A stretch of 64,000 bases of DNA from Escherichia phage JEP8, in sequence record MT764208.1, one strand, 5' to 3'. This document shows, in pieces, positions 5,309 through 39,685 of the stretch (its first letter is position 1; the number at the start of each line of letters is the position of its first letter). The notes under the pieces are model-generated. The model was not told the origin of the DNA. It did not search any database and saw nothing but the letters and a program-made list of their open reading frames with translations. The translations under genes and the position numbers were made by a program.

Positions 5309-5337
5309 AGTATAGGGGATCGGTGATCCCCTGTCAA
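5309..5337 (-). promoter_or_regulatory. early promoter TTGACA-N17-TATACT with palindromic spacer GGGGATCACCGATCCCC
   Basis: drives 5095..5274. Confidence 0.6.
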
Positions 5338-5345
5338 CAACTTTT

Positions 5346-5657
5346 TTAAAGTTTTTCCATGATAACGGTCATAATTACATCTTCTGCGCGAGCGGTCAGA
5401 TTATCAGCGTCAGCATGTGGGCGGTTGGTTGTTACAGAGATAACACCGTTGCGCACTGGTTTGATATTGATATCAAGATGATCCGCGAAACGTTCGCCAG
5501 TTACAGAATGAATTTTGGTGTTAAATTCTTTTGCCAGTGCCTTGCGAACTTCACGAATCAGGGTAGCGTTTTTCAGTTGGTTCTCCGCGCTCATGGTCTT
5601 CTGGGTGTTAATGGTTCCGTCGAAGTCAATCATTGGCAGCGTTACGATGTATTTCAT
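5346..5657 (-). CDS. hypothetical small early protein (103 aa)
   Basis: ORF with promoter cassette 5703-5731 and RBS. Confidence 0.5.
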   Translation of the reverse strand: MKYIVTLPMIDFDGTINTQKTMSAENQLKNATLIREVRKALAKEFNTKIHSVTGERFADHLDINIKPVRNGVISVTTNRPHADADNLTARAEDVIMTVIMEKL

Positions 5658-5702: not shown

Positions 5703-5731
5703 AGTATAGGGGATACGTGATCCCCTGTCAA
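5703..5731 (-). promoter_or_regulatory. early promoter TTGACA-N17-TATACT with palindromic spacer GGGGATCACGTATCCCC
   Basis: drives 5346..5657. Confidence 0.6.
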
Positions 5732-5744
5732 CAACTTTTTTGAA

Positions 5745-6221
5745 TTATTTTTCTTGATGCTCGCGCTCGTACTTTTCGAAATAAAATTCTACTGGCTGGT
5801 CATGAATTGACAGCAAGCCAAAGCGTTTAGCCGCTCGCAATCCCATATTGCGCTGAATGTACTTCTGGAAGTTCTCGCGTATACACTTACGCCAGTATTC
5901 TAAGCCCATACAGCTTTTATAAAGATTGCATTGCACACACGCCGGATTCATGTTATCAAGTATATCATGCTCCGGTTTATGCATTCCTACGACCTTATAC
6001 TTCCACAATCCATCATCATTACGGGCAATTCGTCCATTTTCATCATAGACTACCTTTGAGCGTCGCAATACTGGTTTGATGTGGTCTGCGTGCCAGCGAT
6101 CCCCTAGTTCCTCGCCACAATAGGCACAACGTCCACCGTATTTCATTTTCAGGATCTGGCGTTGCTCTTTCTTTGACAATTTTTTAGGTTTAGGGGCTTT
6201 CGCCCCTTCATTATCACACAT
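5745..6221 (-). CDS. HNH-family endonuclease (free-standing)
   Basis: C-x2-C ... H-A-D-H-I-K-P ... C-V-Q-C-N signature; directly downstream of ligase; true start may be internal Met (MKYGGR...). Confidence 0.6.
   Translation of the reverse strand: MCDNEGAKAPKPKKLSKKEQRQILKMKYGGRCAYCGEELGDRWHADHIKPVLRRSKVVYDENGRIARNDDGLWKYKVVGMHKPEHDILDNMNPACVQCNLYKSCMGLEYWRKCIRENFQKYIQRNMGLRAAKRFGLLSIHDQPVEFYFEKYEREHQEK
6192..6207 (-). promoter_or_regulatory. RNA stem-loop GGGGCGAAAGCCCC (GAAA tetraloop) at the ligase 3' end
   Basis: same element as at 18921-18936 and 31041-31056. Confidence 0.45.
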
Positions 6222-7710
6222 CGAATACCTCTTTTACTGTATTTGCAGTGGTCTTGTCGTAGCGAATACGTTTGATGATTGGGAGAAATAAAGAGAACTC
6301 CGGTTCATCTTCTTTACGTGATTTGCTGCGAATGTACCCGTTGCATGTCATCTCAATGACTTTTCCAATCAGGTTATGACGGTCAGCCCATAACATTTCT
6401 CGGTCGAGTTCATTTCGACTATCGAACGGAATTACACGTTCGATACCATCATCACCTTTTTCGGTTGTGGTGTCGGTCAATCCCGATCCGGTGTTAGTCA
6501 TCATTCGTCCGCACGCACTACGGACAGTAAAACCGCCTACCTTATTAGGATCTTTACTATGCGGATATACATCAACAATTTCCGCGTCGAAGTCAATCAC
6601 TTCTTTAAATTTAACCTGATCTTTACTGCGACGATCTTCAAATACACCATGCAGATTTTTAAGGATAATACCTTCTAATCCCATGTTTACATAGCGATGA
6701 TATACTTCGCGAGCTTCATCGAGATTGTTAACTACGGTATTTTCGATTATCTGAACACGAGGATCGTTAAGTTCTTCAACAATCTGTTTTAGTTCTTCGA
6801 ATCGATCTTTATACTGCTTCGTTGCTTTCTCGTTACCGTAGTACACATCACGGTCGATAACATCCCAGACAGTGTAAACAATACATTGGGCTTCTTCTTT
6901 TGGAATAGTTCCTTTCAGTGATTTGTTGAGGATACCATTTCCGGTCTGACGATCTGCAACAACGGATTCTTTCACTGCTTCCGCTACTGGCGTTAATGGC
7001 ATTTCCTCTTCTTCAAATATCCATGACAGAGTACCATCATAAACGCTCTCAACGAAGTTCTGCGCTGGTGTTTGCGAAAGGGTAGGCATATATACCAATT
7101 CGCCATCTAGAACAATTCCACGGCCTCGTAGACGCTCTAAAACCGCAAACAAATCATCAAGCCCTTGATAGGTATTACCTGAGCGGGTATAGATTGCTAA
7201 TGTTTCCCCGTCAATATCAGCCATACCACGAGCGCCATCGCTTTTAAGTTGTGCATACGCCGGATACTTGATATTAGCAATAGTCTTATCAGAACATGAC
7301 GATGCAAGGTGGCACGGTTGCTGAGGGATCAGTTTCTTCCATACCTTGTTTGCAGTGGTAGCGGAACAGCCGCATTCCAGATCACGATTCAGGACCATCA
7401 TTGCAACTTTAGCATCATCCTCTGACAAGCAAGTCAGAGTATCGGTAACTAGTTGTAATGCTGCATTACCAGTTACTTGACGCGTGGCAAGTTTATTTTT
7501 AAAGACCTGTAATGCACCGGATAAAGACAATACAGACGAATAGCGAGATGGTTTATCGTATTTCTTTACGCCAAACGTAACCTGTTTGCAATATGCCAGA
7601 TAAAAGCATTCTTTCAGCGTTTCATTGCTCGCGGATTCTTTCAGAATCTTTTCTTTCAGCGATGTTTTGTCTGTTGCTGCAAGCTGATTAATGATATTAA
7701 GAATTGACAT
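6214..7710 (-). CDS. 30: ATP-dependent DNA ligase (T4 gp30 homolog)
   Basis: clear similarity along the length to T4 DNA ligase as recalled (KADGAR lysine motif, C-terminal LEGIILKN, KFKEVID); track start is GTG, trimmed to ATG 7710 preceded by GAGGTGA. Confidence 0.9.
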   Translation of the reverse strand: MSILNIINQLAATDKTSLKEKILKESASNETLKECFYLAYCKQVTFGVKKYDKPSRYSSVLSLSGALQVFKNKLATRQVTGNAALQLVTDTLTCLSEDDAKVAMMVLNRDLECGCSATTANKVWKKLIPQQPCHLASSCSDKTIANIKYPAYAQLKSDGARGMADIDGETLAIYTRSGNTYQGLDDLFAVLERLRGRGIVLDGELVYMPTLSQTPAQNFVESVYDGTLSWIFEEEEMPLTPVAEAVKESVVADRQTGNGILNKSLKGTIPKEEAQCIVYTVWDVIDRDVYYGNEKATKQYKDRFEELKQIVEELNDPRVQIIENTVVNNLDEAREVYHRYVNMGLEGIILKNLHGVFEDRRSKDQVKFKEVIDFDAEIVDVYPHSKDPNKVGGFTVRSACGRMMTNTGSGLTDTTTEKGDDGIERVIPFDSRNELDREMLWADRHNLIGKVIEMTCNGYIRSKSRKEDEPEFSLFLPIIKRIRYDKTTANTVKEVFDV

Positions 7711-8176
7711 TTTCACCTCGTTTTGTTAAACGTTCACGAATATCATTGAGGATACTACAAAATTCCGATTCAGTCAATATAGTCTTTAACGGATCAGTTC
7801 CACCTATACTATGACGCAATTTCTTATTTCCGGTAGCGAGTAATGCTTTACAAAATTCTGGGTTATTCCGTGCCATCGTAACAAATGCCAGATGTACCAG
7901 TCTGTAATAATGCTCACTCATTCGATGAATCGGGCGACCCTGAAAATATAACATGTGATTCTCTATCTTTTCGGTCCTTCCGGTTCTTTTTGCTTTGCCA
8001 CCGTGCATCAAAAAGATTTCTCTTTGTCTCTGAGGGTTCTTAAATCTTAGCCCCTGTAAAAATCCTTCTGTGCTGTTAATATCGCAACCAAATAGACGGA
8101 ATGGTCTTTTATTGAAATTACTCAATTCACCCGATGGATAAGGTCCACCCGCATAGATATCAATTTCAGAAGTCAT
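7697..8176 (-). CDS. NADAR-domain protein (YbiA-like)
   Basis: GELSNFN...F...STEGFLQGLRFK...ALLATGNKKL pattern matches YbiA/NADAR family segments. Confidence 0.6.
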   Translation of the reverse strand: MTSEIDIYAGGPYPSGELSNFNKRPFRLFGCDINSTEGFLQGLRFKNPQRQREIFLMHGGKAKRTGRTEKIENHMLYFQGRPIHRMSEHYYRLVHLAFVTMARNNPEFCKALLATGNKKLRHSIGGTDPLKTILTESEFCSILNDIRERLTKRGENVNS

Positions 8177-16592: not shown

Positions 16593-16621
16593 ATTATAGC
16601 GGGGATTTCTCCCCGCGTCAA
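16593..16621 (-). promoter_or_regulatory. early promoter TTGACG-N17-TATAAT with palindromic spacer CGGGGAGAAATCCCCGC
   Basis: between nrdA and nrdB. Confidence 0.6.
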
Positions 16622-18920: not shown

Positions 18921-18936
18921 GGGGGCTTTCGCCCCC
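18921..18936 (-). promoter_or_regulatory. RNA stem-loop GGGGGCGAAAGCCCCC immediately after td stop
   Basis: 6-bp GC stem with GAAA tetraloop 7 nt after the td stop, upstream of nrdA RBS. Confidence 0.55.
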
Positions 18937-18942
18937 TTTTGT

Positions 18943-20175
18943 TTATACTGCCATTTGAGCGGTGATCGCTGGATGGCTTTGATAGTTGTGAATTTTAAAG
19001 TCTTTCGGAGTCTTTGTCAATACCTCATCTAAAGATTTAAATTCCGGCAACTCGATTGTTGGTTTATCAAACGGAACACGGCTTAACTGTTCCATAACTT
19101 GATCAAAATGGTTTTTGTAAATGTGAGTATCTCCACCAGAGAAAATCAGTTCTCCTACCTCAAGGTCACACATTTTAGCTATGATGTGAGTTAACAGCGC
19201 ATAGCTGGCGACGTTAAAGGGCAAGCCCAAAAAGCTGTCTACGCTTCGCTGAAACCACATACAAGACAGTTTACCCTCATTGACATAGAATTGCACGAAC
19301 GGATGACATACACCTAATACAGCATTATGTGTTCCTTGTACGTTCCATGAGTCAATGATGATACGTCGATCCGTTGGATTGTTTTTAATTTGTTCAATCA
19401 CGTTTTGTAACTGGTCTTCCCAAATCTTCGGGCGATAGACATATTCTTCATCGTCTTTAGTGCTCGATGTGTCTACGTCCATACTAGCAAAGATCGTGGT
19501 ATCGGGTGCTAAAATATCCCCACCCAGATAATCACTATCAAGCAGATAACCGAAATAACCATCATCTACCCATTCCTGGAATCCCCACAAGCAATATGCA
19601 TCATTAACAAAATTAGATTGAGTCTTCCAGTGATCTGCTACTAAGAATTGATTATATTCAGAATCAAACTCTTCATAACGCATACCACGCCAGATAGCAC
19701 ATAAACGGTCTTCTGTGTCGTTGGTTGGCGTAAAGTCTTCTACCCACGGGTGTTTAAATGTATGTGTATATTTGCTCTTAACGCGCTTAATTTTGATTTC
19801 ACCGTGTGGATGAATCGGTTTGCGTCGCCATGCCATACCATACATATTGCCAACATTATAGCCGTTGAATCGTAGCGGATTCTTTTCTTTCATATCAAGA
19901 CAGTTGCCGCGCCAAATGTCGAAGGCTTCTTCGTCAAACTGACCGCGTGTAATTTCCTGTAATCGACGGCGGTCAAGTGATCCCTCCATAAACCATAGCA
20001 ACTCGCCAATTACAGAGGCTGTAGCCATCTTTTTAGTGGTCAGTAATGGGAAACCCTTGCTTAAATCAATTCGCATCTCTGCGCCGAATTTAGAGAGCGT
20101 ACCTACCCCCGTGCGGTCTTCACGAGGCCAGCCATTATCAAGAACATCACGCAATAGTTTCAAATATTCTTTCAT
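18943..20175 (-). CDS. td: thymidylate synthase with ~110-aa internal insertion
   Basis: N-terminal (DRTGTGT, TTKK), catalytic (CH.F.QF), and C-terminal (LGLPFNIASYALL, HPAITAQMAV) TS blocks present; 410 aa versus ~286 for T4 Td. Confidence 0.88.
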   Translation of the reverse strand: MKEYLKLLRDVLDNGWPREDRTGVGTLSKFGAEMRIDLSKGFPLLTTKKMATASVIGELLWFMEGSLDRRRLQEITRGQFDEEAFDIWRGNCLDMKEKNPLRFNGYNVGNMYGMAWRRKPIHPHGEIKIKRVKSKYTHTFKHPWVEDFTPTNDTEDRLCAIWRGMRYEEFDSEYNQFLVADHWKTQSNFVNDAYCLWGFQEWVDDGYFGYLLDSDYLGGDILAPDTTIFASMDVDTSSTKDDEEYVYRPKIWEDQLQNVIEQIKNNPTDRRIIIDSWNVQGTHNAVLGVCHPFVQFYVNEGKLSCMWFQRSVDSFLGLPFNVASYALLTHIIAKMCDLEVGELIFSGGDTHIYKNHFDQVMEQLSRVPFDKPTIELPEFKSLDEVLTKTPKDFKIHNYQSHPAITAQMAV

Positions 20176-31040: not shown

Positions 31041-31056
31041 GGGGGCGAAAGCCCCC
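31041..31056 (+). promoter_or_regulatory. RNA stem-loop GGGGGCGAAAGCCCCC (GAAA tetraloop) between genes 34 and 35
   Basis: perfect 6-bp GC stem with GNRA loop immediately after gene 34 stop; same element recurs at 6192-6207 and 18921-18936. Confidence 0.55.
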
Positions 31057-39114: not shown

Positions 39115-39483
39115 TCACTTAACAAAGATTTTCTTTAATGCTTTCAGGATCGTTGCTTCCGGCGCTTCTTCCGGTGGAGGAAGCAATTCTACCACTTCCT
39201 CTTCCAACTCGATATAGTCTACCAGATATTCTACATAGAATGCAAGTGCTTCCATGAAATTAGATGCTACATCCGATTCGCCACACGCGCCCACATGCAT
39301 TGTATAAACATCACTGCGATCAAGTTTGTGGATGCTTCCCAGATAGTTTCGGTTATACCAGACTTCCCACACTTTCAGCTTTCCGGTTTTGGTTGATGTT
39401 TTATAATCGGTTTCGTAATGATGCAATTGACGTTGCAGATCATTGATAATAACACATTTTTCGTAATTGTTTTGAATTTCCAT
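39115..39483 (-). CDS. hypothetical protein (122 aa)
   Basis: ORF in accessory cluster. Confidence 0.45.
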   Translation of the reverse strand: MEIQNNYEKCVIINDLQRQLHHYETDYKTSTKTGKLKVWEVWYNRNYLGSIHKLDRSDVYTMHVGACGESDVASNFMEALAFYVEYLVDYIELEEEVVELLPPPEEAPEATILKALKKIFVK

Positions 39484-39493
39484 GATGTAATCC

Positions 39494-39685
39494 TCACTTA
39501 TCGTTAAGAAGTTCTAAAACTTTCTGTCGTACTTTGTCAATATTAGTTGATTCAAAAACTGTACGGTATCCCCAGCTTTGACCGTATGAGCGGTTGCAAT
39601 CTCCATATCCCCATTGTTCAACCTGATAGTATTCAAGGAATGGGTGCTGCCGAACTATGATACCATCGCGATTAAAAATTACCAT
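39494..39685 (-). CDS. hypothetical protein (63 aa)
   Basis: ORF in accessory cluster. Confidence 0.4.
   Translation of the reverse strand: MVIFNRDGIIVRQHPFLEYYQVEQWGYGDCNRSYGQSWGYRTVFESTNIDKVRQKVLELLNDK

Follow-up and report, generated by a model that had tools for sequence, protein, structure and literature searches.

The HNH nuclease gene that directly follows the DNA ligase gene of Escherichia phage JEP8 is best explained as a resident, vertically inherited gene that is co-expressed with the ligase, and not as a mobile homing endonuclease, a reading that we hold with modest confidence. The gene encodes an identifiable HNH protein with an intact active site, is fixed beside the ligase gene and has diverged along with it, is under purifying selection, overlaps the ligase gene at its start and contains a hairpin whose pairing is preserved by covariation. 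The analysed DNA, a stretch of 64,000 nucleotides (MT764208.1) referred to here as the window, belongs to an RB49-like T4-type phage of the genus Krischvirus (RB49/Phi1/JSE-like).

These observations correct the default homing-endonuclease label: throughout a deep clade of T4-type phages, the gene reads as an old, strongly conserved companion of the ligase gene that has become fixed, and not as a recent selfish invader. Its product can reasonably be proposed to be a functional DNA-processing enzyme instead of a parasitic one. The link to the ligase consists of an overlapping start, which ties the nuclease to ligase expression, and of an RNA hairpin conserved in one sublineage. The locus offers a clean case for studying the domestication of HNH nucleases by phages; it opens no long-standing question and demonstrates no surprising mechanism.

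Identity and fold of the HNH protein

The open reading frame at 5745..6221 on the minus strand, with its ATG at 6221 and its stop at 5745, encodes a protein of 158 amino acids and is the ortholog of RB49 ORF212 and phi1p212. RefSeq records of RB49, Phi1, JSE and others already list the gene as an HNH endonuclease. All motifs given in the preliminary description of the locus are found, exact to the base: C32-x2-C35 at 6128-6117, H44-A-D-H47-I-K-P starting at 6092, and C95-V-Q-C98-N99 at 5939-5925. The Pfam search that it had proposed returns the HNH family PF01844 with 27 bits, above the cutoff of 21.4, and the profile of PHROG 2118, “HNH endonuclease”, matches the full length of the protein (residues 4-157, E=7e-55). 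The predicted zinc ligands C32, C35, C95 and C98 and the predicted catalytic residues D46-H47, N90 and N99, which represent an HNN variant, are invariant in an alignment of 68 family members and are all retained in the JEP8 protein. The AF2 model (pLDDT 92.7) places the putative HNH core in strands 44-47 and 53-57 and helix 96-102, and its best structural matches in Foldseek are HNH domains throughout. Sequence, residues and modelled fold together assign the protein to the HNH, or beta-beta-alpha-Me, superfamily, zinc-ribbon subtype, and mark the reading frame as a genuine zinc-ribbon HNH nuclease gene.

No extra DNA-binding or specificity module (NUMOD, AP2, IENR1 or HTH) is detected in the protein, for which Pfam gives the HNH domain alone; the C-terminal helices could conceivably include a novel binding module. 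The search of 1.84 billion representatives for the family returned essentially stand-alone proteins only, of 110-250 aa, and no fusions or added domains were found among the 156 cluster representatives at E<=1e-30. The protein sequence by itself had no significant match in the PDB, Foldseek found no PDB match to the model at E<=1e-3, and the BFVD matches are unstudied family members only. In PADLOC and NCBIfam the protein resembles PtuB, retron and Cas9 HNH domains at the motif level only. Our literature search found no report on this gene in RB49 or Krischvirus and no experiments on a close homolog.

Distribution, co-divergence and selection

The preliminary description regarded the gene as a typical homing-endonuclease invasion and proposed comparing the flanks of the ligase gene among relatives for presence/absence polymorphism. 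The comparison contradicts that view. The HNH gene is present in a single copy, abutting the ligase gene, in 58/58 Krischvirus genome records, among which no such polymorphism occurs; a 59th ligase match, a 1.5-kb partial RB49 entry and not a genome, was left out. An ortholog also lies directly after the ligase gene in four divergent metagenomic T4-like relatives, L104, L004, L106 and L107, with ligases 72%, 70%, 60% and 51% identical to that of JEP8 and HNH proteins 84%, 69%, 56% and 59% identical, respectively, the two series tracking each other across the lineages. The orthologs from L106 and L107 pass the PF01844 threshold, while that from L104 is slightly under it at 20.0 bits. The next relative, L109, which has a ligase identity of 48% and a T-even-like layout, is without the HNH gene. 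The HNH proteins of the Krischvirus clade form a branch of their own with 56-84% mutual identity and an N-terminal extension that reaches back into the ligase gene.

The HNH gene belongs to a syntenic core block, 31 / 30.3 / 30 / HNH, the order of which is the same in L104, L106 and L107. The upstream neighbour of the ligase gene in this block, encoding gp30.3 (7697..8176, minus strand; Pfam PF08010), overlaps the ligase start.

The within-genus pN/pS ratio is 0.024 for the HNH gene and 0.032 for the ligase gene, with dS values of 0.157 and 0.124, respectively, and 37/42 polymorphic sites of the HNH gene are at third codon positions. Purifying selection on the HNH gene is as strong as that on the ligase gene. 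The GC3 of the HNH gene, 0.453, is closer to that of the accessory ORFs than to that of core genes (0.374 +/- 0.045). Since its homologs elsewhere occur in small sipho-type phages and prophages and its GC3 is accessory-like, some ancient lateral acquisition is still likely.

Junction with the ligase gene and start codon

The directly upstream gene of the same operon encodes the ATP-dependent DNA ligase gp30 (6214..7710, minus strand; Pfam PF01068, PHROG 114). Relatives annotate a ligase coding sequence of 1497 nt, and an alternative GTG start at 7716 appears in the list of open reading frames of the window. The ligase and HNH genes overlap by 8 nt, ATGTGTGA (6214..6221, minus strand), the HNH start codon being positioned within the last ligase codons and stop. 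A Shine-Dalgarno sequence, AAAGAGG (6228..6234, minus strand), is located 6 nt upstream of the HNH ATG within the ligase coding sequence, and a ribosome-binding site is annotated at the equivalent place in phage Makalu_002. Given this overlap and the good Shine-Dalgarno sequence ahead of the ATG, translation of the nuclease is probably coupled to that of the ligase. The junction varies among the relatives, with a TAATG overlap in L004 and L104, a 23-nt overlap in L107 and a 16-nt gap in L106; a Met start over the ligase stop is retained in the two closest divergent relatives, and is followed by Cys in L004. No promoter belonging to the HNH gene itself was detected, the 11/12 matches on the coding strand all being downstream of its stop.

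It had been proposed that the true start may be an internal methionine. This start is unsupported because residues conserved in the family, L15, K18 and the invariant R21, are upstream of Met26; homologs align to the protein from residue ~12-19, and the ATG at 6221 has its own Shine-Dalgarno sequence. A TTG at codon 15 was also considered and rejected, as no Shine-Dalgarno sequence precedes it.

On its other side the HNH gene borders an array of small variable ORFs; it thus stands between the ligase gene and the accessory genes, as initially described, and it is free-standing in that it lies outside any intron. A promoter scan (11/12 match) and alignment with relatives identify a PeSL-type cassette at 5703..5731 (minus strand), composed of TTGACA, a 17-nt spacer with the stem-loop GGGGAT/ATCCCC, and TATACT, which ends the ligase-HNH unit and opens the variable array. 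A second PeSL copy is found at 5309-5337. The PeSL concept has been introduced earlier (PMC2839356, PMC4122927), and PeSL mini-circles and modular shuffling have been described for RB49 and phi1 (PMC2839356 for the mini-circles).

The GNRA hairpin

The 5′ end of the HNH gene contains the GNRA tetraloop hairpin AGGGGC-GAAA-GCCCCU (6192..6207, minus strand), which had been noticed earlier and is confirmed here with a predicted energy of -12.6 kcal/mol. It starts 6 nt past the ligase stop and occupies positions +15 to +30 of the HNH coding sequence, or codons 5-10. The 14-nt core of the hairpin has three exact copies in the window against 0.05 expected, far more than chance would give, and the two other copies are located 5-6 nt past the stops of td and gene 34. 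In L104 the hairpin is GGGGAC-GAAA-GUCCCC, with two compensatory pair changes, and is positioned 16 nt past the ligase stop, at +18; it is missing from L004, L106 and L107. Nucleotides 1-42 of the HNH coding sequence show zero polymorphism among 10 Krischvirus sequences. As judged from these alignments, the hairpin was inserted in frame in one lineage, that of Krischvirus and its closest relative, with its pairing kept by covariation, the covariation being between two distinct hairpin sequences in all.

The hairpin was considered as an intrinsic terminator and rejected, as no U-run follows it and it is unlisted in the terminator scan. Its position suggests that it probably shields the ligase message on its 3′ side, restricts independent translation starts on the nuclease gene, or does both. 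The effect on initiation is uncertain because the hairpin begins at the edge of the ribosome footprint.

Proposed role and alternative explanations

The resident-gene explanation would involve a single acquisition by an ancestral phage of the Krischvirus-like T4-type clade, the likely source being the small HNH genes found in the early, replication or nin regions of sipho-type phages and prophages. The gene has since been maintained in the last position of the 30.3 / ligase / HNH block. The arrangement of the genes suggests that it is read from the ligase transcript. The adjacency to the ligase gene may mark only the landing place, on the border of the hyperplastic region that separates gene 30 from alt. 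By homology to the HNH endonuclease of Geobacter metallireducens (Gme HNHE), the protein would be a metal-dependent enzyme that nicks or cleaves DNA with little intrinsic sequence specificity. It would probably act in replication, recombination or repair of the phage DNA, and its nicks could be substrates for the co-expressed ligase. This biochemical role, unproven as it is, is an extrapolation from a relative whose alignment with the protein spans about 55 residues.

HNH nucleases are a classic homing endonuclease family of T4-type phages, and the gene might be a free-standing homing endonuclease that invaded beside the ligase gene and became fixed in all sampled relatives, maybe being kept active by unsampled HNH-less relatives or by marker exclusion of co-infecting phages. 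The gene lies right where a conserved gene gives way to a hypervariable region, it has an accessory-like GC3, its family is patchy over unrelated small phages and prophages, and true homing endonuclease genes are found at ligase flanks elsewhere, as with an HNH-AP2 gene upstream of the ligase gene in a Pseudotevenvirus. The survey of Petrov et al. 2010 places the gene under “other HNH” in its tally of putative homing endonuclease genes. What makes this origin unlikely, though deserving of some weight, is that presence/absence polymorphism is absent from 58 genomes and from four lineages down to 51% ligase identity, that HNH divergence follows that of the ligase, and that a fixed selfish nuclease without empty sites would be expected to decay, in contrast to the observed pN/pS of 0.024. 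Moreover, the start overlaps the ligase stop without a promoter of its own being found, Pfam finds no NUMOD, AP2 or other specificity domain, fusions are absent, and the truly polymorphic homing endonuclease gene of RB49 is a different one, ORF040, which is absent from phi1. Sporadic presence, a specificity module and relaxed selection or divergence discordant with the flanks, by which homing endonucleases are recognized, are not observed for the ligase-linked gene. A weapon that degrades or nicks the DNA of the host or of competing phages or plasmids (shut-off or exclusion), with timing or a mark, for example Dam methylation, protecting the phage DNA, would fit the early-type operon, in which the next early promoter comes after the HNH stop, the invariant catalytic residues, which imply a conserved nuclease activity, and the Dam methylase encoded by RB49. 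Such a role appears improbable, however, as the similarity to defence and restriction HNH effectors, PtuB and Cas9 among them, is generic and confined to the motif (E about 1e-3 to 1e-2), neither Pfam nor the family fusion search revealed a sensor or specificity domain, the relatives in temperate phages are located among recombination and replication genes, and there is no sign of discrimination between self and non-self.

A branched-DNA resolvase of the endonuclease VII type, acting on Holliday junctions or mismatches as a second enzyme to gp49, is suggested by weaker PHROG matches to “endonuclease VII” families (E=1e-9 and 6e-7), by BFVD family members auto-named “recombination endonuclease VII”, by the presence of T4 EndoVII (1EN7) among the Foldseek matches, by the near-equal size (158 aa vs 157 aa) and by homologs in nin regions beside other recombination genes. 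We give little credence to this function: RB49 has a bona fide gene 49 (39134-39607), to which the family aligns in hhalign with only 38% probability over 34 N-terminal residues, so a replacement of gp49 is rejected; Pfam at E<=0.01 returns HNH PF01844 alone and no endonuclease VII family; the Foldseek match to T4 EndoVII has E=0.19 and TM 0.27; Gme HNHE was reported to be no junction resolvase by itself (PMC3765158); and prophages carry the HNH family alongside RusA or Rap, not in their place. Terminase cofactors are numerous among phage HNH proteins of similar size (PMC3592412, PMC5304195), and a packaging-associated HNH protein that aids the terminase, as in HK97-like cos phages, was also considered, as gene 1 of phage Bas77, which encodes a homolog, lies about 0.8 kb ahead of the large terminase gene. 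Bas77 is the only case near a terminase; no terminase family ranks among the 25 neighbour families (PHROGs and Pfam) that occur most often at 22 non-redundant loci, and the annotated phage contexts are mostly replication or early regions. No requirement for an HNH factor is known for T4-type headful packaging. The JEP8 gene itself is in the ligase operon, away from terminase and portal genes, and on this gene context an HNH protein of the HK97 gp74 type is rejected, a packaging role being very improbable.

The explanation as a resident gene co-expressed with the ligase can be extended to a more speculative scheme, in which ligase and nuclease, conserved together and coupled in translation, would act as a nick-and-seal module. 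Nicks or breaks would be made in the phage DNA by the nuclease, possibly at the PeSL stem-loop cassettes of the neighbouring hyperplastic region, the breaks would prime recombination-dependent replication or PeSL mini-circle and shuffling events, the ligase would close them, and the GNRA hairpin would set the nuclease-to-ligase ratio. We regard this scheme as a long shot.

Comparison with known systems

The T4-type free-standing HNH homing endonucleases (MobA-E, I-TevIII and HNH-AP2 proteins such as RB49 ORF040) have the HNH motif and the small gene size in common with the ligase-linked gene. These genes are sporadic between closest relatives, as ORF040 is between RB49 and phi1, and bear added DNA-binding modules such as AP2, whereas the ligase-linked gene has no such module, is fixed, co-diverges with the ligase gene and is without a detected promoter. 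The likeness to T4 endonuclease VII (gp49) comprises the superfamily fold, the zinc-ribbon arrangement, the similar length and weak family-level matches, but the ligase-linked protein falls outside the EndoVII family, and the phage has its own gp49.

The small HNH nucleases of PHROG 2118, such as Bas77 gp1, eiAU-183 gp20 and Sasha gp76, are 26-50% identical to the JEP8 protein over residues ~12-155 and share its invariant residues. Their genes are likewise tightly packed in operons, with starts overlapping the upstream gene. They differ in that the proteins, of 120-145 aa, begin about 12 residues further downstream, and in that the genes adjoin helicase, polymerase, ParB, NinG, RusA or Q and, in the sampled loci of other phages, never a ligase gene. 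The context of the family elsewhere is early, replication and recombination regions, with NinG/Rap, NinB/Orf, RusA, ParB, O-like, helicase, polymerase and primase genes.

Among solved structures, the family profile has a single significant match, Gme HNHE (Gmet_0936, PDB 4H9D; E=3e-5), which is also the top Foldseek match of the model in the PDB. Its residues C38/C41/D53/H54/N68/C73/C76/N77 align one to one with the predicted zinc-binding and catalytic residues of the phage protein (PMC3765158). The alignment spans only ~57 residues of the 112-residue chain, and the whole folds do not match (TMq 0.31). The phage protein, unlike Gme HNHE, has a ~20-residue beta-hairpin insertion between the motif halves and a conserved C-terminal helical region of ~50 residues (R111, R129, F146, F148 and E149). 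Both proteins are small and stand-alone, without a separate DNA-binding domain. Gme HNHE is reported to be a weak, non-specific, Mn-dependent nickase that prefers damaged DNA, and it is suspected to function in repair or recombination together with a partner that it needs (PMC3765158).

The HNH gene and its surroundings

The ORF at 5745–6221 (minus strand) begins with ATG at 6221, comprises 158 codons and ends at 5745. The encoded protein contains C32-AY-C35, H44-ADH47-IKP and C95-VQ-C98-N99, all of the motifs named in the preliminary description and exactly as written there. The Pfam search proposed in it gave a match to HNH (PF01844) of 27 bits, above the curated threshold of 21.4, and PHROG 2118, “HNH endonuclease”, matches the protein over its whole length (E=7e-55). 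These matches bear out its naming as an HNH nuclease. The gene also lies where it had been placed, between ligase and the accessory array: the ATP-dependent DNA ligase gp30 (PF01068, PHROG 114), itself preceded by gp30.3 and gp31, is upstream and a series of small ORFs, none with a known function, is downstream. The window is 96–99% identical to Krischvirus genomes (RB49, Phi1, JSE, GEC-3S), where the orthologs RB49p212 and phi1p212 carry the RefSeq label “HNH endonuclease”. The annotation as such is already public, and the family is one of a known kind; what is new is that the gene is a long-standing resident, under selection and coupled to ligase, and that the junction has a hairpin of conserved structure.

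For the ligase itself, the ORF listing gives GTG at 7716 as the start, two codons upstream of ATG 7710, but the latter (1497-nt CDS) is the start in all annotated relatives and is the likelier one.

The suggestion that translation of the HNH gene starts at the internal Met26 is not supported, because residues upstream of it are conserved in the family alignment (L15 and K18 nearly invariant, R21 invariant), distant homologs align from residue ~12–19 onward, AAAGAGG lies 6 nt upstream of ATG 6221, and in the T4-like metagenomic relatives L004 (MCKPKK...) and L104 (MSETNEG...) the protein still begins with a Met whose codon lies at the ligase stop or overlaps it.

Conservation of the ligase-HNH pair

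The gene had been interpreted as a homing-endonuclease invasion, for which presence/absence polymorphism at the ligase flank was to be sought. Megablast with the HNH gene alone returned 58 records, each with a single copy at coordinates contiguous with ligase, while the ligase alone returned 59, the additional one being AJ550428, a partial RB49 sequence of 1.5 kb. The megablast-positive Krischvirus genomes are all very close, and deeper relatives were therefore sought in a large protein collection, where L004 was reached via the HNH protein and L104, L106 and L107 (a 169-kb contig) via the ligase. Their ligases are 70%, 72%, 60% and 51% identical to that of the window, correspondingly, and their HNH orthologs 69%, 84%, 56% and 59%. 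The T4-type gene order rnlA / spanins / pseT / cd / 31 / 30.3 / 30 is intact in all four, with the HNH ortholog directly after ligase; three have an HNH start that overlaps the ligase stop, and in L106 the start lies 17 nt beyond the stop. The next relative, L109 (48% ligase identity, T-even-like layout), has no HNH gene after ligase, but a short gene followed by an Alt ADP-ribosyltransferase. Since all four divergent relatives have the pair and L109 lacks it, the pair is a shared derived feature of the whole Krischvirus-like clade, across which the two genes diverge at about equal pace.

In nine Krischvirus sequences (36 pairs), the HNH gene has a pN/pS of 0.024 and a dS of 0.157; the ligase values are 0.032 and 0.124. 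With the window sequence added to the alignment, 37 of the 42 polymorphic HNH sites are third codon positions. Pfam found no additional DNA-binding module in the protein, a search with the family profile among 1.84 billion cluster representatives recovered almost only stand-alone proteins (110–250 aa), and a promoter scan found no sigma-70-type promoter between the ligase and HNH genes, all strong matches on the HNH strand lying past the HNH stop. The absence of an extra module and of an own promoter, together with the stand-alone family, speaks against a mobile gene.

The HNH gene is thus universal at this locus in the 58 records and the four divergent relatives, with no insertion signature and no presence/absence polymorphism, and these sequence comparisons do not support a homing invasion. 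Petrov et al. 2010 counted one “other HNH” each for RB49 and phi-1 among putative homing genes; this entry is most likely the present gene, for which the putative homing label is likewise not supported. An alternative is that the protein is a homing enzyme that has become fixed. The polymorphic homing endonuclease recognised in this group, RB49 ORF040 (HNH-AP2), is absent from phi1, unlike the gene described here.

In a Pseudotevenvirus, Klebsiella phage iPHaGe-KPN-12i, an unrelated HNH-AP2 type gene (L098:1469–2020) lies upstream of ligase and overlaps its start. The ligase of the Slopekvirus Klebsiella phage CPRSB is annotated as three consecutive CDS pieces (L099:1998–3525). Genuine mobile endonucleases evidently make use of the sites beside ligase in other T4-type genera, or these sites are disrupted there. 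A small ORF with a weak GIY-YIG match between the ribonucleotide reductase small-subunit gene and rnlA (L104:498–938) is possibly a seg-like homing endonuclease.

Boundary with the accessory array

Directly after the HNH stop lies a promoter/stem-loop (PeSL) type cassette (5731–5703, minus strand) with TTGACA, a 17-nt spacer containing a GGGGAT/ATCCCC stem-loop, and TATACT. A near-copy with the same boxes and a stem-loop in the 17-nt spacer is found at 5337–5309 (minus strand), and the two flank the first accessory-array ORF (5346–5657). Both match the mobile promoter/stem-loop modules reported for RB49 and phi1 (PMC2839356, PMC4122927).

Three gene arrangements start right after the HNH gene (window ~5745–5760) in close relatives: ORF211 is present (L009, L092, L095), PeSL and ORF210 follow (L093, L094, L096), or an ORF209-like gene is next (L090, L091, L097). 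The HNH gene is accordingly the last stable gene before the hyperplastic region. In genomes of the RB49/JSE type, the inserted ORF211 joins within the last five HNH codons, a recombination junction that alters the C-terminus (...ERENKE vs ...EREHQEK; 157 aa vs 158 aa).

The hairpin at the ligase-HNH junction

The GNRA hairpin noticed in the 5′ end of the gene was confirmed by folding: AGGGGC-GAAA-GCCCCU (6207–6192, minus strand) has a predicted energy of -12.6 kcal/mol. It begins 6 nt after the ligase stop, at +15 of the HNH CDS, and belongs to a stretch of about 8 codons (DNEGAKAP), inserted in frame, which L004, L106 and L107 lack. The L104 hairpin, GGGGAC-GAAA-GUCCCC, has the identical codon register. 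Read by eye, two of its six pairs differ in both partners (one from A-U to G-C, the other from G-C to A-U), and pairing and the GAAA loop remain intact at the cost of two amino-acid changes. These paired changes with retained pairing and loop are direct, if small-sample, evidence that the hairpin structure itself is under selection.

The exact 14-mer of the hairpin occurs three times in the window against 0.05 expected. The core GGGGCGAAAGCCCC recurs at 18922–18935 (minus strand), 6 nt after the thymidylate synthase stop and before nrdA, and at 31042–31055 (plus strand), 5 nt past the gene 34 (tail fibre) stop and before gene 35. Both copies extend to the 16-mer GGGGGCGAAAGCCCCC and lie just ahead of the next Shine-Dalgarno, so that the core resembles a recurring intercistronic element placed close to stops. 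A fourth copy, a variant with 2 mismatches, is at 16601–16614 (minus strand). A terminator was considered and rejected, the hairpin having no U-run and not appearing in the terminator listing.

T4-type mRNAs carry stable intercistronic tetraloop hairpins, and by analogy the junction hairpin would belong to them. Its probable effect is on the stability or processing of the message. As the HNH start lies upstream of it, the hairpin at +15 may also damp independent initiation of the nuclease.

The 410-aa thymidylate synthase ORF (18943–20175, minus strand) is matched by PF00303 in two stretches, the best covering residues 254–410 and profile positions 110–266. This split suggests a mid-enzyme in-frame insertion of roughly 130–140 residues.

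Origin, structure and likely activity

Outside the Krischvirus-like clade the nearest homologs are only 26–50% identical and come from 35–67-kb sipho-type phages and prophages of Proteobacteria and other bacteria; no large T4-type genome was among the sampled non-Krischvirus phage records with a homolog. GC (0.438) and GC3 (0.453) of the HNH gene exceed those of core genes (0.410 ± 0.025 and 0.374 ± 0.045), akin to the downstream accessory ORFs. The simplest account would be that the clade ancestor acquired the gene laterally once, long ago.

With 68 homologs as input, the AF2 model reaches a confident pLDDT of 92.7. It comprises an N-terminal helix, a β-hairpin/helix HNH core with the motif halves separated by an extra inserted β-hairpin, and three or four C-terminal helices with conserved R111, R129, F146, F148 and E149. 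Codon 72 (6006–6008), in the inserted β-hairpin region, encodes Leu in the window and Ser in all nine other Krischvirus sequences compared and in L004 and L104; from these sequences, Leu72 appears private to this phage.

The working model, by analogy, is an enzyme of phage DNA metabolism that would nick or cleave with low specificity and be made together with ligase. In 22 non-redundant viral contigs the homologs neighbour early, replication or nin-region type genes (NinG/Rap, NinB/Orf, RusA, ParB-like, O-like, Q antiterminator, integrase). The homolog is flanked by polymerase and helicase in eiAU-183, follows primase and methylase in Sasha and helicase in fEg-Aba01, and adjoins RepB, xis and int in AH07. 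A packaging cofactor is an alternative; terminase families are not among the top neighbour families of the 22 contigs, and Bas77 is the only annotated phage with the homolog near terminase. The protein might instead be a nuclease directed against the host or competitors, or a second resolvase. Replacement of endonuclease VII was considered and rejected, because RB49 possesses a gene 49 and the profiles match weakly.

Foldseek gave no whole-fold PDB match at E<=1e-3, and its top matches are HNH domains, those of the Geobacter metallireducens nickase Gme HNHE (4H9D), Cas9, Cap5, T4 EndoVII and McrA. Gme HNHE is the one solved protein significantly matched by the family profile (E=3e-5), and its zinc cysteines and D-H / N / N residues pair one-to-one with those of the phage protein. 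Its reported activity is weak, non-specific and Mn-dependent nicking with a preference for damaged DNA; it is reported as no junction resolvase when alone, and is suspected to act in repair or recombination with a partner (PMC3765158).
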